From positions 17,786-81,785 of the forward strand of contig CAYTGR010000013.1 of NCBI GenBank assembly GCA_964437445.1: a stretch of 64,000 nt of DNA, given 5' to 3'. The position numbers and the translations under genes are program-made. Each line of letters starts with the position of its first letter. The stretch's first letter is position 1. Origin of the DNA: an uncultured Anaerolineales bacterium (GTDB lineage: Bacteria > Chloroflexota > Anaerolineae > B4-G1 > SLSP01). This document shows positions 7,064 through 35,802 of the stretch, in pieces. Below the pieces are notes generated by a model that worked only from the letters and a program-made list of their open reading frames with translations, was not told the origin of the DNA and did not search any database.

Positions 7064-8107
7064 TCACTTCAGATAACGATCCAGGAAGGCTAAAATCAGC
7101 TCCACATTAGCAGTTTCCCAGAATTCGGCGGTACCATGCCCTGCCCCTTCCAGAAACATTAGGGTGACCTTTTCTGAGCCAACGGCCGACACCAGCGCGT
7201 CGTAGAGCAACTGGCTTTGTTGCGGGGGGACATTGCAATCCGCCGTGCCATGCTGGATGAGGAAGGCAGCGTCATCAGCGCTGACATAAGTGATAGGATT
7301 GACCGCTTGCACGGCTTCCGGTACTGTCTGGATCGGCGCGCCCACCAGCAAGGATTCGGGAGAATCGGCAGCATCATGGGTGACCGGGCAACTGGTGCCG
7401 GCGAACTGGGCATCCATCTGCAAGAAATCGGTCGGCCCGTACTGATCTACCACGGCCTGCACACAGCTGGATTGATCAGCATACCCCAACTCCGCGCCCT
7501 CCAGAGCCGCCACGCCGCAGGAAGTGCCCAGTAAAGCGACCAGACTGCCGCCTGCCGAGCCTCCCCAGGCCCCGAATTTATCGGGGTTGAGCCGATACTG
7601 GGCCGCGTTAGCTCGCAAAAACCGAACGGCGGTTTTCAGATCCTGAATCTGAGCCGGGGCTAAGGCCTCGCTGCTCAGGCGGTAATTAACGCTGGCTACC
7701 GCATAGCCGGCGGCCAACAGCTGATCCACGCCGGCCTTGCCCATCGCATCCGCTTTATCACCCATCATAAAGCCGCCGCCATGTACCAGGATCACCAACG
7801 GGAAGGGGCCATCACCTTCCGGCAGGTACAAATCCAGTTTTTGGGTCGGCGAAAGGGATGCATACGCCAGGTCAGGGTATTGAGGTTGTGCCACCGTCGT
7901 CGGTAGCCCGCCCCCCATTCTGCCACCGGCAGGACGGCCACCCGCCGCACTGGTAGGCGTTGCGGTCGGCACGGTTGTCGCCGCCGGGATCTCCGGGGAC
8001 GGCGCGACCGTGGTCTGAACAGGCTCTTGGGTCGGAGTTGGCGTCCCGCAAGCCGCAAGCAACCAGACCAGTACCATTGCCAGGGTCAAAGCTAAAGACT
8101 GTCTCAT
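7064..8107 (-). CDS. Secreted lipoprotein esterase, alpha/beta-hydrolase paralog of 2266..3165
   Basis: Likely start MRQSLALTLAMVLVWLLAACG (lipobox) at 8107 with an AAGGAAA RBS. Pro/Thr linker, then HGGGFMMGDK, SVNYRLSSEAL, WGGSAGG and IQHG motifs collinear with the cytoplasmic paralog. Confidence 0.75.
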   Translation of the reverse strand: MRQSLALTLAMVLVWLLAACGTPTPTQEPVQTTVAPSPEIPAATTVPTATPTSAAGGRPAGGRMGGGLPTTVAQPQYPDLAYASLSPTQKLDLYLPEGDGPFPLVILVHGGGFMMGDKADAMGKAGVDQLLAAGYAVASVNYRLSSEALAPAQIQDLKTAVRFLRANAAQYRLNPDKFGAWGGSAGGSLVALLGTSCGVAALEGAELGYADQSSCVQAVVDQYGPTDFLQMDAQFAGTSCPVTHDAADSPESLLVGAPIQTVPEAVQAVNPITYVSADDAAFLIQHGTADCNVPPQQSQLLYDALVSAVGSEKVTLMFLEGAGHGTAEFWETANVELILAFLDRYLK

Positions 8108-8191
8108 GGATATTTCCTTTCGTTTTCTAAAAAATAACGCTTTCACTGTAGATAGTATAACTTTCCCGCGGCCTGGAAGCAATTCAAAATG

Positions 8192-8217
8192 TGCTATAAT
8201 CTATTCCAGAATGGAAT
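8192..8217 (+). promoter_or_regulatory. Extended -10 promoter (TGcTATAAT) and 15-bp palindromic LysR box ATTCCAGAATGGAAT (T-N11-A)
   Basis: Perfect inverted repeat TTCCA-GAA-TGGAA about 30 nt upstream of the LysR start, in the divergent region between the LysR gene and the esterase/sugar operon. Confidence 0.5.
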
Positions 8218-8245
8218 AAGTCGGGGCAATGAATGGGGGGCAGAC

Positions 8246-9130
8246 ATGGAAGTTAAACAACTGGAATACTTCTTAAAGATTGTGGAAACGGGGAACTTCT
8301 CCATGGCGGCTGAGGAGCTGTATATTTCGCAATCTTCGCTTTCCAAGCAGATTATCGCCCTGGAAAAGGAACTGGGGTGCGCCTTGTTTGATCGCAGCAA
8401 GCGCCAAATCGCGCTGACCCCCGCCGGTGAAACCCTGCTGGGCCATGCCCGCGTCCTGGTGCAGGCCTCGCAGGCGCTGCTCTCCGACCTGGCCCAATAC
8501 AAGACTGTCCCGGCTTTAGCGATCGTGGCTATCCCGGTCATTGCCCAATATGGCATCCCGGCCTACCTGACCCGGTTCAGGCAGGCCTTTCCTGCGATCC
8601 AGGTGACCCTGGAAGAGCGCGAGGCCTCCGCCATCCTGCCGGCGCTGAGCAGCCACCAGTTTGATCTGGCTTTGCTCCGCGATAACTATCTGGATAAAAC
8701 CCAATATGCCTGCGTGGAAGTCGCCTGTGATAAGTTTCTGGTGGTGCTCTCCGACCAACACCGGTTGGCTACCCGCTCAACCCTCTCCCTGGCCGAGCTC
8801 GCTAACGAAAACTTCATCATGTTTGATAAAGGTACGGTGGTACACGAACTGGCAGTGGAGGCCTGCCGGCAGGCCGGATTTGAGCCGCGCATTTTCTATG
8901 CCAGCTTGCGGGTGGAAAGTATTCTCGGCCTGGTGGCCTCGCAGGCCGGGATTGCGCTGATGATGGAGAAGGTCTATGCCTATCATCAGCATCCTCATGT
9001 CCTGGCGCTCCCGCTGACCGAAACGATTGAGAGCCATCTTGTCCTGGCCTGGTTGAAGGACAAAAAACTCTCGCGCCCGGCCAGAAAGTTTGTGGCCTTT
9101 ATGGAAGAGGCGGTGACTGTTCAAGGTTGA
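8246..9130 (+). CDS. LysR-family transcriptional regulator
   Basis: N-terminal HTH (LEYFLKIVETGNFSMAAEELYISQSSLSKQI) plus a LysR substrate-binding domain. Start chosen at MEVKQ (GGGGGG RBS) rather than ORF-track start 8189. Confidence 0.9.
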   Translation: MEVKQLEYFLKIVETGNFSMAAEELYISQSSLSKQIIALEKELGCALFDRSKRQIALTPAGETLLGHARVLVQASQALLSDLAQYKTVPALAIVAIPVIAQYGIPAYLTRFRQAFPAIQVTLEEREASAILPALSSHQFDLALLRDNYLDKTQYACVEVACDKFLVVLSDQHRLATRSTLSLAELANENFIMFDKGTVVHELAVEACRQAGFEPRIFYASLRVESILGLVASQAGIALMMEKVYAYHQHPHVLALPLTETIESHLVLAWLKDKKLSRPARKFVAFMEEAVTVQG

Positions 9131-9402
9131 CGGTTGATGGGGGGCAGAGCAATCTCATCACTGGAGCGGGTCATTCTTGCACCGACATCCTGGCCTTGTT
9201 GGCAACTTTTGGCATGGGGATTGGCACAATGGGTGTATACTGTAAGTAAGTGACATCCAGGGGCCGGCAAGAGCCCCTGGCGCGCCAGGCCAGGCGCGGC
9301 AATTCCCCAGAACCGGCAGGGCCTGCTGTCCACGGGACCCGGCAAGTTTCTTGGGGGTAATTAAAAACTATTCAGCATAGCCTGTAACCCAGGAGGTTTT
9401 TT

Positions 9403-11844
9403 ATGGAAGACAAAGAGAAACCCACCATTAACGTAGAACGCCGCCGCCCCGGCAGTAGCACGTCCGCCACGCAGCGCGAACGGGCAGAAGCCCCCTCCCG
9501 CCAGCGCGAACGTCAATCAGTTACAGGGGGGAGTGGTAGTAGCAGTTACCAGGGGGTCCCCTCCATCCCGGGCCTGGAAAATCTGCTTCGCTCGCCCATC
9601 GGCATTGGGGCGATCATTCTGCTGTTCATCTGTGGTCTATCCATTTACTTGCTGTTGGGAGGCACGCTCTCTCTGGAAGATATCAGCCCTCCCGGTTACC
9701 AGGAAGAAACTGCGCCTCCTGGGGTGGTTGAGCAACCCGGGCCAACCCCTACTCGCCGTCCCACCCTGGTGCCGGCCCCGGCCGGGAGCGCCGGGCAAAC
9801 CTGGACTGTCATGTTGTACCAGGATGCAGATGACAAAGTGCTGGAACAGGATATTTTTGTTGACTTGAATGAAGCCGAGCGGGTGGGCTCAGGCCCCAAT
9901 TTGAATATTGTGGCCCAAATTGATCGTTATCAGGCTGGCTTTGCCGGAGATGGCAACTGGGTTGGCGCCCGGCGCTACTTTGTGCGCCAGGATGACGATT
10001 TGAGCGTGGTGGGGTCAGAGCTGGTGCAGGATTTGGGCGAGGTTAACATGGCGAACGGGGACACCCTGGTTGATTTCGCAACCTGGGCCATTGAAAATTA
10101 CCCCGCGGACCATTACGTCCTGATCCTCAGCGACCACGGCATGGGCTGGCCGGGCGGGTGGAGCGATGCCACCGCTACCGGTCACAGCGGGCAGCTGCCG
10201 CTCCAAAGGATGCTGGGAGACAACCTTTACCTGAACGAATTGGACCAGGCTTTGGAAACGATCCGTTCCCAGAGTGGCATAGATCAATTTGAAATGATTG
10301 GCATGGATGCCTGTTTGATGGGCCATATTGAAGTGATGAGTGCCCTGGCTCCCTATGCCAGATACGCAGTGCTCTCGCAGGAAACGGAGCCAGCCCTGGG
10401 TTGGGCCTACGCGGCTTTCCTGGGCGAGCTGCGCGACAATCCGGGGATCACCGGGGCGCAACTGGGACAATTGATCGTAGATAGTTACATTGTGGACGAT
10501 CAGCGCATTGTGGATGATACCGCGCGGGCCGATCTGGTGGGACGCGGGTCCCCGTTGGAGTCTCTGTTCGGCGTGTCCGGTCTGCCCTCTGCTGCGCAGG
10601 TTGCGCGCCAGATGAGCCAGAATGTCACCCTGACTGCCGTTGATCTGCAATCTATGCCGGACCTGATGAGCGGTTTGAACGACTTCGCCGTTGCTTTGCA
10701 GGGGATCAACCAGCGCTCGGTGGCCCAGGCCCGGAGCTATGCTCAATCCTTCACCAATATTTTCGGTCAGAATGTGCCACCGGCCTACATTGACCTGGGT
10801 AACTTTGCTGACCTGGTGGCGCAATCCAGCGGCAACCGTGAGGTGGCCCAGGCCGTTGCCCGGCTCCAGGCGGTCTTGCAGCAGACCATCGTTGCCGAGA
10901 AGCACGGCGCGCGCGTGCCCGGGGCGACCGGGGTGTCCATTTACTTTCCCAATTCGCAGCTTTATGCCACGGCGGCGGCCGGGCCAGAATCCTATACCGG
11001 CCTGGCCCAACGCTTTGCTGCCGAGTCGCTGTGGGACGATTTCCTGGCCTACCATTACACCGGTGAAGCGTTTGAGGCGCAGCGGGGAACGGTCGCCGTG
11101 CCCCCGACGGGCGCGCTACGCGCTCCTGCTGCGGGCGGCATCCAGGTTTCGGCCATCAGCGCGTCGGCGACGGAAGTGGCGCCAGGGGGAAAAGTTCACC
11201 TGAGTGTAGCGCTTGAGGGTGAAAATCTCGGCTATGTGAAGCTGTTGGTGGGTTATCTGGATCAAACTGCCAATTCGCTGTATGTAGCCGATAGTGATTA
11301 CCTGGCCAGCCCCAACACCCGCGAAGTCGGCGGGATTTATTATCCTGATTGGGGCGTCAAAGCATTCACCCTGGCGTTTGACTGGGAGCCCCTGGTCTAC
11401 GCCATTGATGATGGAACGACGCGCTATCCCGCCCTGTTTGCGCCCGCAACCTACGGTAGAACGAGCGAAGAGGCCGTTTACACGGTAGAGGGGATTTATA
11501 CCTTTGCCGATTCTGGCGACCAACGCTACGCCCGCCTGTACTTCGTCAACGGTGTGCTGCAACAGGTCTTTGGTTTTACCGGCGAAGACGCTGCCGGCGC
11601 GCCGCGTGAGATCCTCCCCCGGCCCGGCGATACCTTCACGCTGCTGGAGAAATGGATGGATTTGGATGACCAGGGGCAGGTGGTGCAGACCGTTTTGCAG
11701 GCCGGCAACACGCTGACCTTTAGCGACCGGATGTTCACCTGGGATGTCCTGGATGCGGCGGCGGGGCAATATGTCGTGGGCTTTATCATTGAAGACCTGG
11801 ACGGCAATGCCCAGGTAGTCTTCAAGCCCATCAAGGTGCGCTGA
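9403..11844 (+). CDS. Membrane-anchored clostripain-family (C11, clan CD) cysteine peptidase with C-terminal beta-rich domains
   Basis: Charged cytoplasmic N-terminus, one TM helix (IGIGAIILLFICGLSIYLLLGG), Pro-rich linker. His-Gly (ILSDHGMGW) and Cys (IGMDACLMGH) dyad blocks are spaced as in C11 peptidases. Confidence 0.65.
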   Translation: MEDKEKPTINVERRRPGSSTSATQRERAEAPSRQRERQSVTGGSGSSSYQGVPSIPGLENLLRSPIGIGAIILLFICGLSIYLLLGGTLSLEDISPPGYQEETAPPGVVEQPGPTPTRRPTLVPAPAGSAGQTWTVMLYQDADDKVLEQDIFVDLNEAERVGSGPNLNIVAQIDRYQAGFAGDGNWVGARRYFVRQDDDLSVVGSELVQDLGEVNMANGDTLVDFATWAIENYPADHYVLILSDHGMGWPGGWSDATATGHSGQLPLQRMLGDNLYLNELDQALETIRSQSGIDQFEMIGMDACLMGHIEVMSALAPYARYAVLSQETEPALGWAYAAFLGELRDNPGITGAQLGQLIVDSYIVDDQRIVDDTARADLVGRGSPLESLFGVSGLPSAAQVARQMSQNVTLTAVDLQSMPDLMSGLNDFAVALQGINQRSVAQARSYAQSFTNIFGQNVPPAYIDLGNFADLVAQSSGNREVAQAVARLQAVLQQTIVAEKHGARVPGATGVSIYFPNSQLYATAAAGPESYTGLAQRFAAESLWDDFLAYHYTGEAFEAQRGTVAVPPTGALRAPAAGGIQVSAISASATEVAPGGKVHLSVALEGENLGYVKLLVGYLDQTANSLYVADSDYLASPNTREVGGIYYPDWGVKAFTLAFDWEPLVYAIDDGTTRYPALFAPATYGRTSEEAVYTVEGIYTFADSGDQRYARLYFVNGVLQQVFGFTGEDAAGAPREILPRPGDTFTLLEKWMDLDDQGQVVQTVLQAGNTLTFSDRMFTWDVLDAAAGQYVVGFIIEDLDGNAQVVFKPIKVR

Positions 11845-12128: not shown

Positions 12129-12818
12129 TCACTGCCGCAGTACCAGCGGCAGCAGCACTGTCGCCACAGTGTAGCCTACCCGGACGCCGCGAATCAGCTG
12201 CTGCGGGTCGAAATCATTCAGGGATGCCAGGATGACGTATTCATTCTGGTTGTTGTCAATGACCCAGGCCGGTGATATGACCAGGTTCCGGCTCAAGATC
12301 TCCGTGCTGGAAATGTTGGTGGTGGTGGTCAAAACCGTGACGATTGTAGTGGTATCCAGGGGAATCCGCACAAGGCCGAGCGTAAGGTTGGCTGAGGAGT
12401 TGTCGCGAAAGTAGAAGAGCAGTTCCTGGACCCGCGCCCCCTGGGGTAGTTGCAGCGGTATGGTCATCTCCGCGGGAAGGAGGGCGGTGGTCGTGAGCAG
12501 GGCTCGCCCACTGTAACCAAAGTTGTACACCAATTGATCCCGGCTATCGTAGGTCTGGAAAGCGAGGCCCGAAAAAGTACGGTACGCGAGACCCGGGGTG
12601 ACTGGTAGCGCCGCGGGACTGGCCGCTTCGTGAGGCCCGACCGGGCCGGGGAGGGAAAACGCGGAGGCCGTCGGTTCTTCCAGAACCGGGAGGGCCGGCG
12701 GCGTCACAACCACCTGGGCGCCGGTGCGGGCGGCGGCCGGCAGCCATCCCGGCCCCAGACTGAGGCCGAGGCCAACGGCGATCATGGCCATCAGGATCAC
12801 AAAGCGCGGGCGAGACAT
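12129..12818 (-). CDS. Secreted hypothetical protein ending in the LPLV tail
   Basis: Signal peptide MSRPRFVILMAMIAVGLGLSLG. C-terminus ...TVLLPLVLRQ. No recognised domain. Confidence 0.5.
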   Translation of the reverse strand: MSRPRFVILMAMIAVGLGLSLGPGWLPAAARTGAQVVVTPPALPVLEEPTASAFSLPGPVGPHEAASPAALPVTPGLAYRTFSGLAFQTYDSRDQLVYNFGYSGRALLTTTALLPAEMTIPLQLPQGARVQELLFYFRDNSSANLTLGLVRIPLDTTTIVTVLTTTTNISSTEILSRNLVISPAWVIDNNQNEYVILASLNDFDPQQLIRGVRVGYTVATVLLPLVLRQ

Positions 12819-14554: not shown

Positions 14555-14778
14555 AGGAGCGGGGTGGGGGCGGGCGCTGTGTTTTGCCCGCCCCGGTTAA
14601 TCTGATCAGTAACGTCGGGCGTTCGTTGGACTCTGGGGAACAGGGGTAGGCCGTGGAAGTGCTCCTTACCCATGCCTTGAGTCGCTCGCCTCACCGAAGT
14701 CCACGGCCTGTTGCTCGGGTTTTCCCGGCCTCCTTAACTTGTTGGGGCCACTCTATCATTCATACTGTGGAGCTATCC

Positions 14779-17469
14779 ATGACATTACGCCTGAAGACAC
14801 TGTTGATCATGGGAGTGCTGTTGGTGGGATTGGTCAGTATTCTTTACCTGGCCCTCTCCACTATCCTGGCCGACGGTTTTAAGCGGGTTGAGGAAACCAG
14901 CATCCGTAAGGATGTGGAGCGGGCGCTGAAAACCGTAGCCAACGACTTGGCGAACTTGAGCTCCACGGCGCGGGATTATGCCGAGTGGGATGACACCTAT
15001 GCCTTTGTCCAGGACCGGAATCCTGATTATATTGAGGCCAACCTGGTTGATTCCACTTTCTCCGAACTCAAGATCAACGTGTTCATGTTGTTTGACGACG
15101 CCGGCCAGCTGGTCTTTGCCAAGGGGTTTGATCTGGATGATGCCGTGGTGACGCCGGTCACGGAAGGATTGTTGAGCTATTTTCAGCCTGGCAGCGCTTT
15201 TTTGTATCATCCCGATTTGCAAACCCGCTACAGTGGCATTTTATTGCTCCCTGAAGGGCCGCTGTTAATGGCGGCCTGTCCTATCCTTACCAGCCAGAAT
15301 AAGGGCCCAATCCACGGGACGCTGGTGTTGGGGCGCTATCTGGATGCGTTGAAGGTGCAGCAGCTGGCCGACCTGACTAATTTGACATTGACCATTCGGC
15401 GGCTGGATGATCCCCAGCTGCCCGACGATGTGCGGGCGATTCAGGGGCAGTTCTCTGATCCCGCGACGATTGTAGTTCAAACATTGGGCGACGAAACCAT
15501 CGCCGGCTACAGTCAGATCACAGACGCTTTTGGCAAGCCGGTGTTATTGTTGCGCGTGGTAGTGGCTAGAGATGTCTATCGGCAAGGTCAACTCAGCCTG
15601 ACCTATTTGCTTTTCTCACTCCTGACCCTGGGATTGATGTTCAGTTTGATTACCTTATGGCTGTTAGAGCGGTTGGTGTTAGCGCCGGTGCTAAGATTGA
15701 GCGCTGAGGTTGGATCGGTGACCCGGCAGGAAGACCCGGCTTTGCGGGTGACGGTTCCCGGCAAGGATGAACTGGGCAAGCTGGCAGTTGCGCTCAACGG
15801 CATGTTGGAAGCGTTGGAGGTTTCTCAGAGACGCCTGCAAGAAAGCGAAGTGCGCTACCGGGCCGTGGTGCAGCAATCGGTAGAAGGTATCGTCGTGGCC
15901 GATGCGGCGACCAAACAGATCCTGGAGGCCAATCTGGCTTTTCAGCGCCTGCTGGGGTACAGTGGGGAGGACCTGCGTTGCCTGACCTTATATGAGGTGG
16001 ATACCCTGAATCGGGAGGCCATTGATTGGACGGTTGAGGCGATCATGGAATCCGGGCAGTCTTTGCTGGGGGAGCGCCAGTTTCGTTGCAAGGATGGCTC
16101 GTTAATTGATGTGGAAATAAGTGCCAACGTGTTGTGGTTGAGCGGGCAGCGGGTCGTGAGTATGCTTGTGCGCCATATCGGCGAGCGCAAGCGGGCCCAG
16201 GCGGAGATTCTGCGGCTCAATGCGCGCCTGCAGCGGCGCGCCGAGGAACTGTCGGCGCTTAACCAAGTGGGACGTTCTATGGCCGCCGTTTTAGAGTTGC
16301 CGGATCTCTTGCAGCTGGTCCAGGTAGAAGCCATGAACCTGCTGGCAGCGGACGCTGCAGCCATATTTCTCTATGAACCGGCCACCGCTTTGTTGACGTG
16401 CGTTGCCGCGCACGGGCCGGGCGAGGCGGAGATGGTGGGCCGGCGTATTCCCGACCGGGTGGGGCTGGCCGGTTGGGTGGCCCAGCATCAACAAACAGCT
16501 CTGGTGACGCAGGTAGCAGACGATCCCCGCTTTCAAGAGTTGTTACCCTTCATGGAATGGTATCGCGGCCGCTCGGTTTTATCTGTGCCGCTGCTGTTTA
16601 ATGCGGTGGTCAGTGGGGTGATTGAAGTGGTCAGCCAGGACAGGCAATTGTTTGATGCCCATGACCAGGAGCTCCTGGAAGCGATTGCTGCGGCCGCGGC
16701 AATTGCCGTCAACAACGCCCAGCTGTACACCAATCTCCAGCTGGCGCTGCGCCAGGAGCAGACGATGCGCGCCCAGCTGATTCAGGCTGGCAAACTGAGT
16801 GCGATGGGACGCATGGTGGCCTCGGTCGCCCACGAGTTCAATAACCCGTTGCAGACTATCAAGAATTGCCTTTTCCTGGTGCAACAGGACATTGGTCCGG
16901 CACTGGCAGAGAATGAGTTTATGCACACGGCCACGTCGGAAATCCAGCGGCTTTCCGACCTGGTGACGCAGTTGCGGGCAGTATATCGCACGCCCGCGGT
17001 CGAGCAGCGCCAGCCTTTGGATCTGGTACAGACCCTGGACGTGGTCCATACGTTGATGCTGCCACACCTGGATAAGCACCGGGTCAGCTGGGAGATCTCC
17101 CTGCCCGCCGTTCCGCTCCAGGTAGTGGGCATTGCAGATCAACTGAAGCAGGTCTTTCTGAACATTGCGTTAAATGCGGTGGATGCCATGCAACCGGGTG
17201 GCGGCGTCCTTACCGTTGCTTTTGTGCTCTCAGACGCGGGCGATAGCGCCGGGGTGGTTTTCCGTGATACCGGACCTGGCCTGGCACCGGAAGTGCTCGC
17301 TAACCTGTTTGAGCCGTTTTTTACAACCCGGGAGGGCGGCATGGGCCTGGGTCTGGCGATCAGTTATGACATTGTGCAGAGCCATGGGGGGCGGATAGAG
17401 GTCACCAGTCCGCCGGGGGCGGGAGCGCAATTCACGGTTTGGCTACCCCTGGCCTCCCCGGACGGATGA
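14779..17469 (+). CDS. Sensor histidine kinase with periplasmic CHASE4-like domain, HAMP, PAS, GAF, HisKA and HATPase
   Basis: TM helix, then the CHASE4 signature (ARDYAEWDDTYAFV), second TM, PAS (QSVEGIVVADAATKQILEAN), GAF, H-box SVAHEFNNPLQ, and a G-box HATPase_c. Start at MTLRL (14779). Confidence 0.85.
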   Translation: MTLRLKTLLIMGVLLVGLVSILYLALSTILADGFKRVEETSIRKDVERALKTVANDLANLSSTARDYAEWDDTYAFVQDRNPDYIEANLVDSTFSELKINVFMLFDDAGQLVFAKGFDLDDAVVTPVTEGLLSYFQPGSAFLYHPDLQTRYSGILLLPEGPLLMAACPILTSQNKGPIHGTLVLGRYLDALKVQQLADLTNLTLTIRRLDDPQLPDDVRAIQGQFSDPATIVVQTLGDETIAGYSQITDAFGKPVLLLRVVVARDVYRQGQLSLTYLLFSLLTLGLMFSLITLWLLERLVLAPVLRLSAEVGSVTRQEDPALRVTVPGKDELGKLAVALNGMLEALEVSQRRLQESEVRYRAVVQQSVEGIVVADAATKQILEANLAFQRLLGYSGEDLRCLTLYEVDTLNREAIDWTVEAIMESGQSLLGERQFRCKDGSLIDVEISANVLWLSGQRVVSMLVRHIGERKRAQAEILRLNARLQRRAEELSALNQVGRSMAAVLELPDLLQLVQVEAMNLLAADAAAIFLYEPATALLTCVAAHGPGEAEMVGRRIPDRVGLAGWVAQHQQTALVTQVADDPRFQELLPFMEWYRGRSVLSVPLLFNAVVSGVIEVVSQDRQLFDAHDQELLEAIAAAAAIAVNNAQLYTNLQLALRQEQTMRAQLIQAGKLSAMGRMVASVAHEFNNPLQTIKNCLFLVQQDIGPALAENEFMHTATSEIQRLSDLVTQLRAVYRTPAVEQRQPLDLVQTLDVVHTLMLPHLDKHRVSWEISLPAVPLQVVGIADQLKQVFLNIALNAVDAMQPGGGVLTVAFVLSDAGDSAGVVFRDTGPGLAPEVLANLFEPFFTTREGGMGLGLAISYDIVQSHGGRIEVTSPPGAGAQFTVWLPLASPDG

Positions 17470-18639: not shown

Positions 18640-19800
18640 ATGGATATCAAAGGGGAACGCGGGCAAGCATTGTTTGTAGTATTGTTTGCCATGGTGGCCT
18701 TACTGGTCATTGTGGGCCTGGCGATTGATGGTGGGCAGTTATACAAGGCGCGGCGTGACGTTCAGACCGCGGCCGACGCCGCGGCCCTGGCCGGGACTCG
18801 CGAACTGTCCCAGGCTATCGTCACCTGTAGTGCCGGCGGCAGCGCCCAGGATCGCCTGGTCCGGGATGCGATTGTAGAGTATGCCGCGCTCAACGGCGTC
18901 ATTCACGACAATGTGAATGGCCGCATTTGGGCCTGGTACGTCGACAAAAATCAGGCTCGCTTGAGCAGCGTGGGGTTGGGAAGCGTGCCTAACGGGGCCA
19001 CCGGCGTGGAGGTTTCCATGGTTGTGACCCATCCGACGGCCTTCCTCCGGGTCGTGGGGCAGAATGATATTGTCGCCCCAGGCGAGGCGCTGGCGATGGC
19101 CGGGCGACTCACCCAGATGTCCGGGAATCTGATGCCGGTCGGCGTCCCGGACGAGGTGATTGGGCAGATCAATCCGAATGATACGCTCTGGATCTTTGAC
19201 GATGGGCGCTATTGCCGGGACAACGCGGGGAGCGAGTGTCTGGATACCGGAGACTCGGCGGCGTACCGTGGCTGGTTCAACTTTAACTACATCTACAACC
19301 TGGAGCACCTGCCTAAGGCGGATCCCCTATACCGGACGATTACCACCAGCCGCAGCAATGCTGATATCAAAAACTGGCTGCAAGGAATCGGGGTGCCGGT
19401 CATCCTCGCCGGCAACGTCGGCGCGACGAACGGTGATTACATCTACGGAGATACGGGTGAGCGCGCCGGCGCGATGGATGAGATTTACGATACCTATGAG
19501 GGAGAGACGATTTACTTCCCGGTCTATGATATGGTTTACTCGGGCGAGTACCTGGCCCAGTATCCCGGCATCTTCCAGGCCCCAGAAGGGGGATGGGCCA
19601 ATACCATCATCGGGAAAAAGAACGCCTTTATGTACCACATCGTCGGGTACGTGGCCGCCATTCCCACGGGGGTGTCTAAGGATAAGTTGCGCACCAGCTT
19701 TCAGACTTCCATTATTGGTGAGGGTCAGATTCAACCGGGTGACGGTCTGGGAACCTGTTCTAGTCGCATGTTGACCTATGCCGTGACCTTGTGGCGGTAG
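18640..19800 (+). CDS. TadG-like (Flp-pilus TadE/G-like N-terminal domain) protein with large C-terminal domain
   Basis: N-terminus GQALFVVLFAMVALLVIVGLAIDGGQLYKARRDVQTAADAAALAG is a pseudopilin-like hydrophobic segment plus Tad N-domain. TAGGAGGGG RBS. Confidence 0.6.
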   Translation: MDIKGERGQALFVVLFAMVALLVIVGLAIDGGQLYKARRDVQTAADAAALAGTRELSQAIVTCSAGGSAQDRLVRDAIVEYAALNGVIHDNVNGRIWAWYVDKNQARLSSVGLGSVPNGATGVEVSMVVTHPTAFLRVVGQNDIVAPGEALAMAGRLTQMSGNLMPVGVPDEVIGQINPNDTLWIFDDGRYCRDNAGSECLDTGDSAAYRGWFNFNYIYNLEHLPKADPLYRTITTSRSNADIKNWLQGIGVPVILAGNVGATNGDYIYGDTGERAGAMDEIYDTYEGETIYFPVYDMVYSGEYLAQYPGIFQAPEGGWANTIIGKKNAFMYHIVGYVAAIPTGVSKDKLRTSFQTSIIGEGQIQPGDGLGTCSSRMLTYAVTLWR

Positions 19801-19866
19801 GCCATTTCATCAAGGTCCTGAAGGGTTCTGATTTCAAAGTTAAGGATCAGCAGCAGGGGGTGGGGG

Positions 19867-21759
19867 ATGATAAAATCTGGCAGACACAACCGGGGGCAGG
19901 CACTGGTAGAATTTGCGTTGATACTGCCTCTTTTGCTGTTGATCATCTTTGGGATTATTGATTTTTCGCGCGCGTTTTTTGTCTACGTCAACCTGACCAA
20001 TGCCGCGCGCGAGGGCACCCGCTATGGACTGGTCAATCCGCGCGATTACACAGGGATTGATACTCACGCGCGCAGTACAGTTGACCTGGTGCCGGCTCCG
20101 TTGGTGACCGTCAATGTCTGGTATGATAAAGGTCCCGGCACGGCCACTTTTAGTAATCCCCAGTATGTGACCGTGGGGGATCGGGTCGTGGTGGAAATTG
20201 CTTACGATTTGGAGCCGGTGACACCGCTTATCCAACCCTTTGCCCCGGTTTTTCCGTTGCATACAGTGAATGCGCGCACCATTCAGACCTTGGGCACAGT
20301 CGTGAGCGACAATCCCAACCCGGCGCCGCCGAACGAGCCGCCTGGGGATGGAGCGACGCCGACCTCCACGCCCGGGGGTGGGCCAACCGCTACCGCCACG
20401 CCGGTTGCCCCGACGGCGACCGCGACGCCACGGCCGCCGACGGCCACGCCTACGCCGGTCCCCCTGCGCATTGTCCGGCCGCTGCTGCCGGGGAGTACCC
20501 AGGTGGGCGGGATTGGGCAGCCGGGGCAGATGGTGACGCTGCGCATTGTGCAAACCGGCTTCCAGCAGAGCGTGTTTGTAAATTCCAACGGACAGTTCTT
20601 GTTCACGGGCATTCCGCCTCTGGTGGCAGGGTACACCGTGATTGTGCAGGGCTATGGTCAACAGGACCTGGTTGTGGTGGAGACCGGAACGGCCACACCG
20701 ACGGCGACCCCGACTCCTCTCCCTTCTCCCACTCCCACCCCAAGCGGGGTGTTTATCGCCGTTACGCCCGGCTGTGCTCCGGTGGGCGCAACCCAAACGT
20801 TCCAGGTGACCGGATCTAACTGGCCGACCGGCAGCGCTCAAAAAAGGATCGCCATCTATTGGGATACGGTGGATAGTTCACCGGAAGCCCGGATCAGTGC
20901 CGCGGTGTCCTTCAATACCTCCATTCAGGTCAATGTGACGGCCGGCACGCATACCATCATAGCCCGGACGGAGGACAACCAGGGTAATTACACGGGAGGT
21001 GCTCAAGTCACTTTCCAGGTAACGGCTCCTTGCCCGGCCACCCCAACGCCAAGGCCCCAGGCGCGCCCCAACCTGATCATCAATGGGATGCTGTTGCGTG
21101 ATACGCCGCCGTTGGGCACCTACCAGAAGCTGCATCTGGAAGTGGGGATCTCTAACCAGGGGGCTCTCGACGCGGCCTCGCTGTTCTGGGTGGATTTGTT
21201 TGCTGATACACCTGCCGACCCCCTGGCTTTCAGCAGCGTGGATTATGTGGCAGTGGATGGCCTCCTGGCTGGCAGCACCCTTTCGTTTACCATGTATGTG
21301 CCCGACGGATTTGCTGCCACGGGGGTGCATACCCTGACGGCTATGGTGGACACCTGGGATCAGATCGCCGAGACCAGTGAACTGGATAACCTCAGCCGGG
21401 TTTACACGGTTACGATTGCGAGCGCTAACCCGACGCCCACGCCCACGCCGACGCCGGAGGTGACGCCGGGAGCCGGTGGCGCGATTGAGGGCACCACGTA
21501 CATGTACACCGACGGGTTGCGGCCGCAGAGCGGGGTCAGTGTCTACGTTTACGACGCGCAGGGTCGCCTTTATGGTTCTACCCGTTCGGATAACAACGGC
21601 GCGTATCATATCGGCGATTTGCCGCCCAACTCCACCGGCTATACCGTGCGCGCCGTCTTGCGGATTGGTGACCAGTTGTACGTGGATCAGGCCGTAGCGC
21701 CGGTCTATGCCGGGATGACTACCACCGGGGTTGACTTCACTTTTGTTCCTGCTAATTGA
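19867..21759 (+). CDS. TadE-like N-terminal domain fused to Pro/Thr linkers, Ig-like, CARDB-like and carboxypeptidase-regulatory-like domains (adhesin-like)
   Basis: N-terminus GQALVEFALILPLLLLIIFGIIDFSRAFFVYVNLTNAAREGTRYG is a TadE motif. Two PT-rich linkers. C-terminus SGVSVYVYDAQGRLYGSTRSDNNGAYHIGDL is a CarbopepD_reg-like beta-sandwich. Confidence 0.65.
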   Translation: MIKSGRHNRGQALVEFALILPLLLLIIFGIIDFSRAFFVYVNLTNAAREGTRYGLVNPRDYTGIDTHARSTVDLVPAPLVTVNVWYDKGPGTATFSNPQYVTVGDRVVVEIAYDLEPVTPLIQPFAPVFPLHTVNARTIQTLGTVVSDNPNPAPPNEPPGDGATPTSTPGGGPTATATPVAPTATATPRPPTATPTPVPLRIVRPLLPGSTQVGGIGQPGQMVTLRIVQTGFQQSVFVNSNGQFLFTGIPPLVAGYTVIVQGYGQQDLVVVETGTATPTATPTPLPSPTPTPSGVFIAVTPGCAPVGATQTFQVTGSNWPTGSAQKRIAIYWDTVDSSPEARISAAVSFNTSIQVNVTAGTHTIIARTEDNQGNYTGGAQVTFQVTAPCPATPTPRPQARPNLIINGMLLRDTPPLGTYQKLHLEVGISNQGALDAASLFWVDLFADTPADPLAFSSVDYVAVDGLLAGSTLSFTMYVPDGFAATGVHTLTAMVDTWDQIAETSELDNLSRVYTVTIASANPTPTPTPTPEVTPGAGGAIEGTTYMYTDGLRPQSGVSVYVYDAQGRLYGSTRSDNNGAYHIGDLPPNSTGYTVRAVLRIGDQLYVDQAVAPVYAGMTTTGVDFTFVPAN

Positions 21760-21774
21760 TCTGTAGAGGATGAG

Positions 21775-23034
21775 ATGCGACCACGTTATTGGGGTCTGGT
21801 TATCGGAATGGTGTTAGCTTTGGTGCCGGTCATCGTTGGGGCGGCGGCCTTAGCCGAATGGGTGGGGGCCGATCCGGCGTTCCAGCTGGTTGCCAACGGC
21901 GATGGACAACATGCCGACCTGGCGATCAGAACCGGGCAGACGGCAGTAGTCTGGGCCGGCCGCAGTACGCCGGGCATTTACCTGGGCACTGCGGGCGGGA
22001 GCAGCTGGACGACAACCACTCTGACGACGGCTGCCGAGGTCCATCATCCGGTCGTTGTTTATTCGGGTACCCGCTGGATTGCTGTGTGGGCGCAGGGCAT
22101 TCTTTCAGATGTGACGATTATGAGCCAGGATCAGGACGGCCTGGCGCAAGCTGTGGTTACGCATATGTTCGGTGAGGCCTTCCCGCAGCTCAAAAGTGGC
22201 CCTACCGGACAATATCTAACCTTTGCTGCCAGCACTTCTTACGCCGAACGCACGTTGACCGATCTCTATCTCAGCCACCGACCGCTGACGGCTACGGCCT
22301 GGGCTACCGCCATTGTAGTGACTCGTACGCAGGTGATCCCCGGTCAGACCGGCGGGGGCGTATGGAACCCCCGCCTGGCACTCAGCCCGGATGGACTGAC
22401 TCTGCACCTGGTCTGGCAGCAGACAGTGGGCATCACCCGCACGGTCTGGTATCTCTCCGGTACCTGGACTCCAGGCGGTGTCATGTGGGGATCGCCGCAA
22501 CAGGTCTCGCCACCCGATCAGAGTGTAGCGGTGTTGCCGGATGTGGCCGCGACGGCGGACCAGGTGTATGTCACCTGGACTGAAGTGGCGGGGGGGGTGG
22601 CCTATTCCAATACCCAGTATATCAACCTGTGGCAGCTGGGAAAGCCGGCTGTCCGGGTCTCCCCTGATTTCTATGTCAACAACGTCCAACCTACCTGGGC
22701 AGCCTCAACGCTGGATGCGCAGGGGCAGCAGGTCTGCTTCACCTGGCACGCTAATGCCCCTGGCCTTCCCTCCGGGGAGGGAAAAGAGGAAGTCTGGCTG
22801 CGGTGTTCCAAAGATGGCGGAGCGACCTGGATGGAGATGGTAAATGTCTCCGAGAGCCCGGCCACTTATTCTTTGAATCCCAGAGTGGAGCTGGACGCCA
22901 GCGGGCGGGTAGCGCTGGTCTGGACCGAAGTGGCCATGGATCAGGAACAGCGGAAATTTTATGATGTTTATTACCGCAGCGGCCCGGCACAAATGTTGCA
23001 TGTCTACTTGCCCCTGGTATTGCGGAGATCTTGA
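21775..23034 (+). CDS. Secreted BNR-repeat (sialidase-like beta-propeller) protein ending in the LPLV tail
   Basis: N-terminal signal/anchor. One canonical BNR motif SKDGGATW plus degenerate copies. C-terminus ...HVYLPLVLRRS. Confidence 0.5.
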   Translation: MRPRYWGLVIGMVLALVPVIVGAAALAEWVGADPAFQLVANGDGQHADLAIRTGQTAVVWAGRSTPGIYLGTAGGSSWTTTTLTTAAEVHHPVVVYSGTRWIAVWAQGILSDVTIMSQDQDGLAQAVVTHMFGEAFPQLKSGPTGQYLTFAASTSYAERTLTDLYLSHRPLTATAWATAIVVTRTQVIPGQTGGGVWNPRLALSPDGLTLHLVWQQTVGITRTVWYLSGTWTPGGVMWGSPQQVSPPDQSVAVLPDVAATADQVYVTWTEVAGGVAYSNTQYINLWQLGKPAVRVSPDFYVNNVQPTWAASTLDAQGQQVCFTWHANAPGLPSGEGKEEVWLRCSKDGGATWMEMVNVSESPATYSLNPRVELDASGRVALVWTEVAMDQEQRKFYDVYYRSGPAQMLHVYLPLVLRRS

Positions 23035-23642
23035 CCATGCGCGCTATAAAGGGGTTGGCTTTATTGCTGGGGGGGCTGGTGGTCCTGCTGGTTCTGCTGG
23101 TCGCAGGCTGGCAGGGCCGGCGCTGGTTGACCACGGCGTTCCCGGAGCCTACCCTGGCCTGGAGCGGGCTAAGCGCTCCCGTGGCGTTGTCGGATGCCGC
23201 CGGGCGTAGCGCGGAGCGGGCGACGGCCTGGGCCGCGGATGCTGTTCTGGTGGAGGTAGAGGGGGCCTGGCGTCCGGCCCCGGACTGGATCCAGGTGGAG
23301 ACGCCGCCGCTGGCCTGGACGTTTTATTACTACTCTGCCATCCAGCGGTCAGTCGCGGCGGTGACGGTACAGGGAGATTCTCTGCTCTGGTCTCCCCCTC
23401 TGGAAGTCACAGTCGCGCCGGAGGTGTTGTCCACCTTCCCGCCCGTGTACGGCGCTAACGTGGCCTGGCTCTCTCTGCGGGCCGCCGGTGGCGATCAACT
23501 GTTGCAGGAAGATGGCGAAACTACCGTGCGGCTGACGTTGCATCAGGTTGAGGGCACACCCCTCTGGGAAGCTGTAGCATTTCGGGAGGGACAATTTTTG
23601 CAGGTACGATTAGATGCTCAGACCGGCCAGGTTGTCCCCTAA
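23031..23642 (+). CDS. Membrane-anchored hypothetical protein (type II topology), translationally coupled (ATGA) to the BNR gene
   Basis: N-terminal TM LALLLGGLVVLLVLLVAGW. Remainder extracytoplasmic with no known motif. Confidence 0.45.
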   Translation: MTMRAIKGLALLLGGLVVLLVLLVAGWQGRRWLTTAFPEPTLAWSGLSAPVALSDAAGRSAERATAWAADAVLVEVEGAWRPAPDWIQVETPPLAWTFYYYSAIQRSVAAVTVQGDSLLWSPPLEVTVAPEVLSTFPPVYGANVAWLSLRAAGGDQLLQEDGETTVRLTLHQVEGTPLWEAVAFREGQFLQVRLDAQTGQVVP

Positions 23643-23745
23643 GGGCGGCGCGTAGTTACGCCAATCCTGAGCTATGCTCAGGCCAGGCCTTGCTGACACG
23701 GCCAGCGGGTGGCCTCAAGGCCGTTCAGAGCTGACTTTTTAGGAG

Positions 23746-23795
23746 GTTCTTCGCGGGCGGGCCTTGTCTGCCGGCGAAGAACTTCTGTTTTTATC
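23746..23795 (+). terminator. Rho-independent terminator closing the TadG/TadE/BNR operon
   Basis: 9-bp stem GTTCTTCGC/GCGAAGAAC with a 19-nt GC-rich loop, followed by TTCTGTTTTTAT. Confidence 0.65.
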
Positions 23796-23879
23796 CCTCG
23801 TGCTTCTACCACCGGTCGCTTCGCTGAAAGCGCAGTAGTTGAAACCACCAACCCGGGTGGTTACATCCCGGGTTAATGA

Positions 23880-23997
23880 TGAGGACACAGCAACGAATTC
23901 TCATGGTTATCTCATGTTATTAACGTAAGAAAATGGTATTATTTAGGTAAGATATAACCTACCGGAAATTTGAAGCTTAGCAATCAGGAGGCGTGAA
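23880..23997 (+). promoter_or_regulatory. AT-rich promoter region upstream of the small TadE-like gene
   Basis: Local AT island (for example ..ATGGTATTATTTAGGTAAGATATAACC..) in a 65% GC background. AGGAGG RBS before the ATG at 23998. Confidence 0.35.
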
Positions 23998-24417
23998 ATG
24001 TTTAAAATTGCCCAGCGCCGTGAACAGGGACAGAGTCTGGTGGAATTTGCACTTTTGTTGCCGTTGTTGCTGATTTTGTTGTTGGGAGTGCTTGACCTGG
24101 GGCGTGTTTTTTACGTTTTGGTAGCCTTGAAAGACGCTGCCGACGAAGGAGCTACCTACGCTGCCATCCGACCATCGGATACCCAGGGAATTCAATTGCG
24201 AACTGCGGATGCTTCTGGCTCATTAGTGACCATTGATCCGGCCCAGGTGACGGTGGTGCGGCCGGCGACGGTAGTCCCCGGTGCTCCGATCACGGTGACG
24301 GTTGAGCACTCTTTTGAATTCTTCAACCCCTTCATTGCCCCGGTGCTTACCAGCGCTGCGAACAACAGTATGGTCCTGCATACCAATTCCACTCATCCCA
24401 TTATTTCAGTGCGGTGA
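23998..24417 (+). CDS. TadE-like protein (minor pseudopilin-like), stand-alone
   Basis: N-terminus GQSLVEFALLLPLLLILLLGVLDLGRVFYVLVALKDAADEGATYA is a TadE family signature. 139 aa. Confidence 0.7.
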   Translation: MFKIAQRREQGQSLVEFALLLPLLLILLLGVLDLGRVFYVLVALKDAADEGATYAAIRPSDTQGIQLRTADASGSLVTIDPAQVTVVRPATVVPGAPITVTVEHSFEFFNPFIAPVLTSAANNSMVLHTNSTHPIISVR

Positions 24418-24541
24418 GTGCGCGCGTTGAGGTGGGGGCAGGGCTGGCGAAGGGGGCGGATGGATGATCACCCATGAGGGTAGGAATTAGGATTTGCGCT
24501 GTCTAGGGATAATTTAAGACAAGACTGTTGAGAATGAAAAT

Positions 24542-24573
24542 CTGCCGCCGGGGGTAAATTATCCCCCGGCGGC
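24542..24573 (+). terminator. Strong hairpin (12/13-bp stem CTGCCGCCGGGGG..CCCCCGGCGGCA), probable terminator or attenuator with a weak U tract
   Basis: Inverted repeat read directly. Followed by ATGTTGCTGGTTGG. Confidence 0.4.
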
Positions 24574-24743
24574 AATGTTGCTGGTTGGCGGGCGATCCCG
24601 GCGCTGGCGCCGGTCCGGTGGCGGGTGCAACCGCCTGGACCCGATGGCGTGGCTCAAGAAAAACCGCCCCCAGCACGTAATGGCTCCGTTATCGCCTCCA
24701 CGGGGAGTTTATCTTACGCAAAACATACCTGTATCCACATTTG

Positions 24744-24752
24744 TGTTATAAT
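24744..24752 (+). promoter_or_regulatory. Extended -10 promoter element TGtTATAAT upstream of the PHP/PKD gene
   Basis: TGTTATAAT lies 70 nt upstream of the ATG at 24824. No good -35, which extended -10 promoters tolerate. Confidence 0.4.
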
Positions 24753-24823
24753 GTGCCCCTGTTTTGCTGTTGCCGGCGCTCTCAACCGTATGATTTTTGC
24801 AGACTCTGTTCAGGAGGCTTAAC

Positions 24824-33570: not shown

Positions 33571-35802
33571 ATGGCGCTCCACAAACCCTGTTTACTCCTC
33601 GTGGCCTTGCTGTGCCTGTTGCCGGGCCTCAAGGCCGTGCCTTCGCCCCAGCCGGCGCTGGCGGTGCAGGAGATTTATACCGACGCGCTGGCAGCGGGGT
33701 GGAGCAATTGGTCCTGGGCCACAGTGAATTTGCAGGCCACCGCGCCGGTCCACTCGGGCAGCCGCAGCATTGCCGTGACCTGTAGCGCCTGGCAGGGACT
33801 TTATTTGCATTACCCTGAACTTGCCACGGCCGGCTTTACACATTTACGCTTTTTCATCCATGGCGGCAGCGCCGGTGGCCAGCAGCTCCACGTGTACGCG
33901 ACCTATCCGGTCAACGGCTCCGACCAGAATGGGCCGGCGGTCGCTGTGTCGCCGCCGGCGGCCAATACCTGGAGCGAAGTGCGCATTGCCCTCGCCGACC
34001 TGGGGGTGGCGAACGTCGCGCTGACCGGCCTGATCTGGCAGAATACGACCGGCGGCGCGCAGCCTACGTTTTACGTGGACGATATCGCCCTGGTGGCGGA
34101 CGAAAGCCCCGACGGTCCCACCCTGAGCGCCGGCTACCTGCGGCCGCGCGCGGTGCCCGCCGATGGGGGGACGCAAACCGTGGTCCGCGTCCGGGTCGGT
34201 GATCCCCAGGGCCTGTCTGACATCGCCAGCGTGACGTTGGACGGCAGCGCGCTGGGCCGGGGCGCGATCCCCTTGCGCGACGACGGCTGGAGCAACGACG
34301 GCGCGACGGGCGATGGTGTGTACGGGGCCGTGTTCACGGTCGCGCCGGGCACGGCCAGCGGCGAGCCCCAGCTGCTTGTCACCGCGCAAGACCAGGCCGG
34401 ACATCGCGCCAGTTTGCAATTGGGCGCGCTGGCCGTGCTGGCCTCGGCGGGCGGCCGGATTCCCTCGGCGTTGCCGCAGCGCCTGGGCTGGGGCTCCAAC
34501 GCCTGGAGTGAGACGCCCGGCCAGGACTGGCAGGTCAATAGCGGCGTCCCCTGGAACTACGTTTACCAGTACATCACCTACGACTGGTACGTGAACGGTT
34601 GGGGCGGCAACTTTGTCGGGCGCTTTGTGAACCAGGCCTGGAACAAGGGCTACGTCCCGCTGATATCGGTTTACATGATCCTGGAAGTGCCGCCCAACTG
34701 TGGCGAGAGCGCCACCTGTTACGCCGCCAAGTTGCAGAACTCCCAGACGGTGAGCACTTATCTGGCCGCACTGCAGGAAGCGGCCCGGCAGGCCCAGGGC
34801 CCGCATCCCGTCATCTTTCACCTGGAGCCTGATTTTTACGGCTACATGCAGCAATTGAGCAACAGCGCCGAGCGCCCGGCCGGCGTCCAGCCCGACGATC
34901 CCAGCTCCTACCCCGTGGCGTTGAACGTGGCCGGCTATCCCAACACCCTGGCCGGATTCGGGCGGCGCATGGTGGATCTGATCCACGCTACCGCGCCCAA
35001 TGCGCTGGTCGCGCCGGCCGCGAGCATGTGGGCGACCAACGGCGACCCGAACTCGGTTCCCGTCGCGCAAGTGACCAGCATGGGGCAACGCACGGCGGCC
35101 TTCCTGGAAGCGATGGGCGGGGCGCAGGCGGACCTGCTGGTGGTAGAGTGGAGCGACCGCGACGCGGGTAGCGGCCTGCGTCCCTGGTGGGACGATACGA
35201 ACCTCACCCTGCCGCGCCCCACACGGGCGATCTTGTGGGAGAATGCGCTCTCGGTCGCGGCGCACAAGCGGCTGATCTTGTGGCAAATGCCCGTCGGCAA
35301 CATGGCGTTGGATAACACCTGCGACCATTATCGCGATAACCGTGCGGCTTACGTGTTCCAGCACCCCCGTGATTTGGTGGATGCCGGGGTCTTGGCCGTG
35401 CTGTTCGGCGGCGGGGCCGAGTGCCAGACGCAGGTGACGACCGACGGCGGATTTGTCGCCGCGCAAGGCGCGATCGCGTATGCCCGCCCGCTGACGCCAA
35501 CAGGGCTTGCAGCGGGCCCGGTGGTCGGACCGCTGGTGCCTGTGCGCTGGGATGAGAACACCGAGCCGGACCTGTGGGGCTATCGGGTCAGCCAGCAACG
35601 GGCGCAGGGGGGAGCAGCTCTTGCCGTTGATGCCGGCCGGAAGAACGCGCGGATGCTTTTGCTTCCGCAGGCCGGCGACTGGCGCGTCAGCGTGGCGGCT
35701 TACGACGCCATGGGGCAGCTGGGGCCGGCCTCGGCCGTCATTACCGTCACAACCACTATCAACGCCCAACAGGTTTTCCTGCCCCTCGTTCAACGCCATT
35801 AG
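33571..35802 (+). CDS. Secreted multidomain protein: N-terminal CBM-like, Ig-like, central putative glycoside-hydrolase-like barrel, C-terminal Fn3-like; ends in the LPLV tail
   Basis: Signal peptide MALHKPCLLLVALLCLLPGLKA. Central region rich in W/Y (GWGSNAWSE..WNYVYQYITYDWYVNGWGGNF). C-terminus ...QQVFLPLVQRH. Enzyme family not identified. Confidence 0.4.
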   Translation: MALHKPCLLLVALLCLLPGLKAVPSPQPALAVQEIYTDALAAGWSNWSWATVNLQATAPVHSGSRSIAVTCSAWQGLYLHYPELATAGFTHLRFFIHGGSAGGQQLHVYATYPVNGSDQNGPAVAVSPPAANTWSEVRIALADLGVANVALTGLIWQNTTGGAQPTFYVDDIALVADESPDGPTLSAGYLRPRAVPADGGTQTVVRVRVGDPQGLSDIASVTLDGSALGRGAIPLRDDGWSNDGATGDGVYGAVFTVAPGTASGEPQLLVTAQDQAGHRASLQLGALAVLASAGGRIPSALPQRLGWGSNAWSETPGQDWQVNSGVPWNYVYQYITYDWYVNGWGGNFVGRFVNQAWNKGYVPLISVYMILEVPPNCGESATCYAAKLQNSQTVSTYLAALQEAARQAQGPHPVIFHLEPDFYGYMQQLSNSAERPAGVQPDDPSSYPVALNVAGYPNTLAGFGRRMVDLIHATAPNALVAPAASMWATNGDPNSVPVAQVTSMGQRTAAFLEAMGGAQADLLVVEWSDRDAGSGLRPWWDDTNLTLPRPTRAILWENALSVAAHKRLILWQMPVGNMALDNTCDHYRDNRAAYVFQHPRDLVDAGVLAVLFGGGAECQTQVTTDGGFVAAQGAIAYARPLTPTGLAAGPVVGPLVPVRWDENTEPDLWGYRVSQQRAQGGAALAVDAGRKNARMLLLPQAGDWRVSVAAYDAMGQLGPASAVITVTTTINAQQVFLPLVQRH

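Follow-up and report, generated by a model that had tools for sequence, protein, structure and literature searches.

The cysteine peptidases of the clostripain family (MEROPS C11) are founded on clostripain from Hathewaya histolytica (Protein Data Bank (PDB) entry 9cip), in which a loop, Arg181-Arg188, is removed in calcium-dependent automaturation (PMC13178200). Other solved members are PmC11 (3uws), thetapain (6n9j), iotapain (6nag), distapain (6mzo) and fragipain (5dyn), and the activation cleavage of PmC11 is at Lys147. Here we describe a gene for a C11 peptidase at positions 9403-11844 (forward strand) of a 64,000-nucleotide stretch of DNA from an uncultured Anaerolineales bacterium, the whole of which is referred to as the window. 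The product, 813 residues long, is predicted to be anchored in the cytoplasmic membrane with its peptidase domain outside the cell. Like clostripain, it has the HG and DAC sequence blocks with an Asp two residues before the catalytic Cys, and a loop between the His and Cys blocks able to carry an activation cleavage, whereas clostripain is freely secreted and has neither the transmembrane anchor nor the cytoplasmic tail nor the double beta-sandwich of the window protein. The five other enzymes share its core fold with template modelling scores (TM-scores) of 0.61-0.73, normalised to the target. Several of these five, which are Bacteroidales enzymes, are secreted or zymogens according to their depositors, as we infer for the window protein, but they are single-module proteins of ~350-380 residues with cleavable signals, whereas the window protein carries a signal anchor and an extra C-terminal region. 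That known C11 enzymes are soluble and secreted, as a preliminary description of this DNA had stated, agrees with the matched solved structures, which their depositors describe as secreted proteins or zymogens, and our literature search found no paper on a transmembrane-anchored C11 enzyme.

Further systems are relevant to the possible role of the window protein. GelP and LarF, from class V lasso-peptide clusters, are extracytoplasmic C11-type enzymes that react at a C-terminal basic residue and expel a single residue as the leaving group (PMC13178200). GelP is clostripain-like, has a signal peptide and no activation loop, and is a proven transpeptidase that joins the carboxyl group of Lys17 to a Lys side chain with release of a single Gly (PMC13178200). 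These enzymes are a mechanistic precedent for a C11 'sortase', compared here by description only and not by sequence; unlike the window protein they are soluble, of ~48 kDa, and encoded inside clusters for ribosomally synthesised and post-translationally modified peptides, and no lasso-peptide genes were seen at the window locus. Sortase A, exosortase, archaeosortase, rhombosortase and myxosortase offer a second parallel, in which a membrane protease acts with a short C-terminal tag found on unrelated secreted proteins. Their signals are tripartite (motif, transmembrane helix and basic tail) and the enzymes belong to unrelated families, whereas the YLP-box, the C-terminal tag found on proteins of this locus, has no transmembrane helix; as no pairing of enzyme and tag is demonstrated here, the likeness is one of idea only. 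PorU, the gingipain-family sortase of the type IX secretion system, is a cysteine peptidase of clan CD and strips a C-terminal signal from proteins at the cell surface. The preliminary description had drawn this comparison, which we retain as an analogy only, since PorU belongs to a different family, C25, and acts on a folded C-terminal domain of ~80 residues at an outer membrane. No C25 domain was found in the window protein, which only PF03415 matches at E <= 1, and evidence of a type IX secretion system was not seen in the window, in which no systematic search for such a system was made.

The coordinates, ATG start and length of the open reading frame (ORF) given in the preliminary description were exact, and in an alignment this ATG is the common start of the homologue N-termini. 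The gene and the layout of its product are as follows.

9391..9396, + strand: Shine-Dalgarno sequence AGGAGG, 6 nt before the ATG, read from the sequence
9403..11844, + strand: whole ORF, stop codon included, for the 813-residue membrane-anchored C11 peptidase (ORF list, Pfam PF03415, homologues)
9403..9594, + strand: N-terminal cytoplasmic tail, residues 1-64 (charge count, conserved Arg-rich motif)
9595..9660, + strand: single transmembrane helix or uncleaved signal anchor, residues 65-86 (hydropathy, AlphaFold helix)
9661..9792, + strand: extracytoplasmic stalk rich in Pro, Thr and Glu, residues 87-130 (predicted local distance difference test (pLDDT) <50 for residues 86-118; 27% identity in the family)
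9793..11067, + strand: C11 catalytic domain with its helical subdomain, residues 131-555 (Pfam, Foldseek; 68% mean identity in the family)
10135..10137, + strand: catalytic His245 in the SDHGMGW block (alignment with the HG block of clostripain; invariant in 121 of 121 sequences)
10168..10215, + strand: variable loop between the His and Cys blocks, residues 256-271, a candidate auto-activation loop with Arg269 here (homologue alignment)
10306..10314, + strand: Asp302-Ala303-Cys304, predicted S1 specificity Asp and catalytic Cys (alignment with D-A-C of clostripain; invariant)
11068..11193, + strand: second linker, residues 556-597 (no secondary structure in the model)
11194..11841, + strand: all-beta C-terminal region of two beta-sandwich-like domains, residues 598-813 (17 strands; no Pfam family)

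This layout differs in places from the one first outlined. A charged tail of ~70 residues followed by a single transmembrane helix had been described; the single hydrophobic segment, residues 65-86, stands, and the tail comes to 64 residues with 11 Arg/Lys. The disordered Pro-rich stalk, which had been placed ahead of the C-terminal domains, lies between the transmembrane helix and the catalytic domain, and the beta-rich C-terminus, put at ~350 residues, spans residues 598-813 or ~215 residues (~260 if the count starts where the Pfam match stops).

The ORF product is a clostripain-family cysteine peptidase and belongs to an uncharacterised subfamily of this known family. Pfam PF03415 (Peptidase_C11) matches residues 139-550 with an E-value of 4.4e-37 over 357 of the 359 profile positions (2-358), and the score of 128.9 bits against a cut-off of 25.8 is far beyond chance. 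Among solved structures, clostripain 9cip is the closest in sequence (E 5.5e-8, 20-21% identity), and the HG and DAC blocks of the two proteins align residue for residue; the two dyad blocks named in the preliminary description are thus present as LILSDHGMGW, with His245, and IGMDACLMGH, with Cys304. The clostripain equivalog model TIGR02806 gives only 46.2 bits against a cut-off of 550 and matches over its N-terminal 189 profile positions only, so that the protein is a member of the family and not an orthologue of clostripain, and NCBIfam has no model specific to this C11 subfamily. An AlphaFold2 model of the full protein, built from an alignment of 73 sequences, reached a pLDDT of 83.9 and a predicted TM-score of 0.82. 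In this model the protein adopts the caspase-like alpha/beta fold of clan CD together with the C11 helical subdomain, and His245, which follows strand 237-243, and Cys304, which follows strand 296-302, are both located at the ends of central beta-strands. The ten best Foldseek matches in the PDB were all C11 enzymes, namely clostripain, thetapain, iotapain, the distapain zymogen, PmC11 and fragipain, with an E-value of 1.3e-17 and a TM-score of 0.63 for clostripain 9cip and TM-scores of 0.65-0.73 for 6n9j, 6mzo and 6nag. Profile search, predicted fold and dyad geometry all bear out the family membership that had been proposed from the letters.

Across 121 sequences His245, Asp302, Ala303 and Cys304 are invariant. 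Asp302 occupies the S1 position, which in C11 enzymes accounts for the preference for Arg or Lys at P1, and the same specificity is predicted for the window protein. The loop of residues 256-271 contains at least one Lys or Arg in 118 of the 121 homologues, at a shifting position, with Pro266-Leu267 conserved. By analogy with clostripain and PmC11, the basic residue of the loop would fit a site of self-activation, though its position varies.

The anchoring of the protein was assessed from its N-terminal region. Residues 65-86 are strongly hydrophobic, with a Kyte-Doolittle average of 2.6 over 19 residues, and residues 65-84 form a helix in both AlphaFold models that were made, one of the full-length protein and one of residues 1-130 alone. 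The helix is followed by an acidic stretch rich in Pro and Thr, and inspection of the sequence after the helix revealed no signal-peptidase site of the Ala-x-Ala type. In relatives that share both its catalytic and its C-terminal domain (P0155, P0156, P0160, P0164 and P0132), an ordinary general secretory (Sec) or lipoprotein signal stands directly before the C11 domain, and the C-terminal domain also occurs in proteins with an FHA domain and a transmembrane helix. The distribution of charge, the absent cleavage site, the relatives with a Sec signal or lipobox and these FHA proteins argue for a topology with the N-terminus inside and the C-terminus outside, and together with the hydropathy of the helix and the charge of the tail they support the single-pass anchor of this orientation that had been described previously.

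The cytoplasmic tail is itself conserved. Residues 6-33 form a nearly invariant motif, K-P-[ST]-I-x-V-x-R-R-R-P-G ... R-E-R-A-E-A-P-x-R, which is followed by a variable Gly/Ser-rich spacer; the motif region spans positions 9418-9507 of the window (residues 6-35). Within it R13, R14, R15, A28 and P31 are invariant and K6, R27 and R33 near-invariant. In the full-length AlphaFold model residues 8-30 of the tail have a pLDDT of ~90 and residues 8-13 form a strand, while in the model of residues 1-130 alone, which had a shallower alignment, the same residues are coil with a pLDDT of ~60. The RRR of the tail was also considered as a twin-arginine translocation signal and rejected, as it lies ~50 residues before the hydrophobic helix with the variable spacer between.

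The C-terminal region, residues 598-813, is built of 17 strands with a pLDDT of ~90 in the AlphaFold model. It corresponds to no Pfam family, and Foldseek gave only weak Ig/FnIII-like matches. Its mean identity within the family is 65% against 68% for the catalytic domain, so the two are equally conserved. The double beta-sandwich is a separate module that also occurs outside the anchored peptidases: it was found in 357 representatives, the FHA proteins among them. The latter are proteins of ~500 residues (P0201, P0202, P0222, P0232 and P0270) in which an N-terminal FHA domain and one transmembrane helix precede the module. Three of the C11 relatives with a Sec or lipoprotein signal (P0155, P0156 and P0164) carry extra C-terminal domains.

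A protein search returned more than 2,379 relatives, of which the best 120 are mostly full-length, have 54-99% identity to the window protein, come from metagenome-assembled genomes (MAGs) of Anaerolineae or Thermoflexales and carry the names "hypothetical protein" or "clostripain-related cysteine peptidase". A scan with one genome per species found a relative in at least 442 genomes. The best 80 of these genomes are all Chloroflexota, mainly Anaerolineae, and encode full-length relatives with 51-80% identity (median 55.5%); they include Anaerolineales, Caldilineales, Ardenticatenaceae, Promineifilaceae and the cultured Longilinea arvoryzae KOME-1, with the qualification that some of the genome labels are generic or probably loose. 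Each locus fetched had one orthologue, and identity fell in a band of 51-60% across orders. Clustering of all genes up to 5 kb away from the C11 gene at 83 loci revealed no conserved operon partner, the only recurrent families being generic ABC-ATPases and histidine kinases or response regulators (13 loci each), and no conserved linkage to an oligopeptide transporter or other partner gene was found among the clustered loci. The C11 gene looks to be a stand-alone gene under strong constraint.

The window also encodes secreted proteins that end in a short "LPLV" tail, and the preliminary description had suggested the C11 enzyme as their maturase or sortase. There are three such tails and one variant, all four on proteins with signal peptides, and two of them lie in a Tad-type pseudopilin cluster at 18640-27286 (+ strand).

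12129..12818, - strand: convergent neighbour of the C11 gene, a 229-residue secreted protein ending in ..VLLPLVLRQ, YLP-box-like (ORF list, tail search)
18640-19800, + strand: TadG-like gene
19867-21759, + strand: 630-residue TadE-like protein with CARDB/Ig domains
21775-23034, + strand: 419-residue YLP-tailed protein ending in ..YLPLVLRRS, interleaved in the Tad cluster
23998-24417, + strand: second TadE-like gene
24797-27286, + strand: PKD-domain protein with the variant tail ..YVPLVLAQW, interleaved in the Tad cluster
33571-35802, + strand: 743-residue 'choice-of-anchor X'/FnIII protein ending in ..FLPLVQRH

The position of two of these genes may mean that YLP-tagged proteins are linked to the pilus-like Tad apparatus. 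The tail itself is already covered in NCBIfam by two very small models, NF053834 "ultrashort_CTERM" and NF050076 "sort_motif_YLP", which end at Arg and carry the description "YLP-box putative sorting motif". Three of nine tails tested, two from the window and one from locus L002, passed the NF053834 cut-off. In the literature searched we found no paper on the YLP-box or relevant to sorting signals of Anaerolineae, and neither there nor in the databases searched was a processing enzyme assigned to it. The 229-residue neighbour, which had no match in Pfam or NCBIfam and no homologue at the 82 other loci, is a possible substrate of the C11 enzyme.

The tail was characterized in the family of the 743-residue protein, which is kept at 60-85% identity. 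Nearly all of its 120 members are tailed, with the consensus V-[YF]-L-P-L-[VI]-x-[RK]-COOH; the last residue is Arg or Lys in 92 of 114, and in 91 of 110 tails nothing follows the basic run, so that the window tails with residues after the Arg (R-Q, R-RS and R-H) are of a minority type. YLP-like tails of this family were also found in MAGs labelled Herpetosiphonaceae and Kouleothrix of the class Chloroflexia (P0291 and P0303), which indicates that the tag reaches beyond the Anaerolineae. YLP tails share a contig with an orthologue of the C11 gene at seven loci, namely the window, L002, L016, L035, L049, L057 and L083, so that the pattern named in the preliminary description as a refutation, orthologues never accompanied by LPLV-tailed proteins, was not observed. 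At locus L057 the C11 gene is preceded, at a distance of 48 bp, by a gene (7932-9899) for a secreted zinc carboxypeptidase of the Peptidase_M14 family, 655 residues long and ending in a YLP-like tail (..KAYLPFILHNNE). The Arg/Lys endopeptidase and the carboxypeptidase could be a functional pair.

In light of these data we propose, with a probability of roughly 60%, that the protein is a type II membrane-anchored, extracytoplasmic C11 endopeptidase that activates itself and, at the membrane surface, cuts exported proteins in a limited and Arg/Lys-directed manner. It would be made as a zymogen and, like clostripain and PmC11, cut itself after a basic residue (here Arg269) in the loop of residues 256-271; on the outside of the cytoplasmic membrane it would then cleave exported proteins or peptides at a limited number of Arg or Lys sites. 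The beta-sandwich region may position substrates or bind the envelope, and the Arg-rich motif may couple the enzyme to something inside the cell. The enzyme might instead be a nutritional surface protease that degrades environmental proteins next to the membrane for peptide uptake, with its beta-sandwich region binding polymeric substrate, a reading that we consider less likely but a serious rival. Clostripain is itself a secreted protease and sediment surveys count C11 genes as extracellular peptidases (PMC6469976), and in addition to the M14 carboxypeptidase gene of L057 there are genes for trypsin-PDZ and M28 peptidases within 10 kb of the C11 gene at L001, L085 and L087. Nutrition is, however, difficult to reconcile with the lack of a conserved oligopeptide-transporter linkage, with a single orthologue per locus in a narrow identity band across orders, and with an invariant cytoplasmic motif that has no obvious use in a digestive enzyme. 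A housekeeping role in processing is more likely than bulk digestion of food proteins because of this narrow band, the equally conserved C-terminal module and the invariant motif. Several points nevertheless weigh against our proposal. Activity, cleavage site and substrates are all predictions, the preference for processing over nutrition draws on three things only (conservation, copy number and the cytoplasmic motif), the basic residue of the loop has no fixed position, and the M14 carboxypeptidase adjoining the C11 gene in L057 fits a digestive pair equally well. In the full-length model, moreover, the tail appears docked on the ectodomain, which is hard to square with tail and ectodomain lying on opposite sides of the membrane. 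This docking, in which the protein's own strand and RRR (residues 8-15) are placed on the ectodomain with high confidence, hints at a groove for a strand followed by Arg and would suit a catalytically silent scaffold or receptor that binds Arg-ending peptides without cutting them, but we regard such a receptor as very improbable, since all 121 sequences keep the dyad, the S1 Asp and the blocks around them unchanged, which is the signature of an active enzyme.

The remaining alternative is that the C11 enzyme is the missing processor of the YLP-box. It would bind the tail as a strand followed by Arg or Lys (hydrophobic-Y/F-L-P-hydrophobic-hydrophobic-x-R/K, at the C-terminus) and cleave the Sec-exported proteins or transfer them onto an envelope acceptor, with a chemistry akin to that of GelP and LarF, asparaginyl endopeptidase ligases or sortase, so that they are attached to or retained at the surface of the filamentous cells. 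We hold this to be doubtful. What speaks for it is that the tail is a curated putative sorting motif to which no enzyme is assigned in the databases and literature searched, that the window holds three such tails and a variant, that the S1 Asp suits the conserved Arg or Lys of the motif, and that GelP, which is clostripain-like, is a proven transpeptidase. Four lineages (the window, L016, L035 and L057) have a gene for a YLP-tailed secreted protein less than 1 kb from the C11 gene, these proteins being unrelated to one another, and further such genes lie less than 6 kb away in L002, L049 and L083; a permutation of the distances between tailed genes and the C11 gene gave a nominally significant p = 0.035 (n = 6; window and syntenic duplicates excluded). 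The enrichment within 1 kb, on the other hand, does not reach significance (3 of 223 genes against 4 of 884; Fisher p = 0.15), and at about 78 of 85 independent loci the 10 kb around the C11 gene are free of tailed genes. A clear chemical objection lies in the tails that end at a basic residue or run (91 of 110), which offer no scissile bond and no leaving group for an Arg-directed cut or transfer, while others (..YVPLVLAQW, ..FLPMMLQGGD and ..YLPFILHNNE) have no basic residue. Tails also occur in MAGs labelled Chloroflexia, whereas every named carrier of the C11 family that was found is labelled as an Anaerolineae type or only generically, and homologues do not conserve the LPLQR segment by which the loop of the enzyme resembles the tail. 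The maturase or sortase role suggested at the outset is therefore left with the shared contigs and the distance permutation in its favour, and is weakened by the Fisher result, the many tail-free loci and the tails that end at Arg or Lys.

Two more specific ideas on this pairing were tried and rejected. The loop segment GQLPLQR was considered as a mimic of the tail, with a shared recognition or cleavage site; Arg269 is Ser, Thr or Ala in most homologues. An arrangement in the style of GelP or butelase, with the Arg of the tail as P1 and a leaving group of one or two residues, fits three of the window tails and was rejected as a general rule in view of the 91 of 110 tails that end at a basic residue.

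The other neighbours of the C11 gene vary. In the window, a divergent pair lies upstream, a secreted BD-FAE/alpha-beta hydrolase esterase (7064-8182, - strand) and a LysR-type regulator (8189-9130, + strand), neither of which is conserved beside the C11 gene at other loci. At five loci (L010, L027, L029, L038 and L058) the C11 gene is followed, after 23-178 bp and in the same orientation, by a gene of the sensor histidine kinase/response regulator cluster; that of L010, the one examined, encodes a PAS sensor kinase. In the window a CHASE4-PAS-GAF kinase is encoded at 14653-17469, 2.8 kb downstream. As this family is very large, the adjacency may be local synteny or chance.

Taken together, these data define a conserved subfamily of four-part proteins, which combine a cytoplasmic Arg motif and a signal anchor with a C11 domain and a new double beta-sandwich. 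Hundreds of Anaerolineae genomes encode it, that of the cultured Longilinea arvoryzae among them, and its members have been labelled there only as "hypothetical" or "clostripain-related". To our knowledge, the anchoring of surface proteins in Chloroflexota is essentially unstudied. As clostripain-like enzymes have recently been proven to be dedicated transpeptidases, the idea that the YLP-box is processed by this enzyme is a testable one and, if true, it would be the first sortase-like system on a clostripain fold, acting with a tag that has no membrane-spanning segment.

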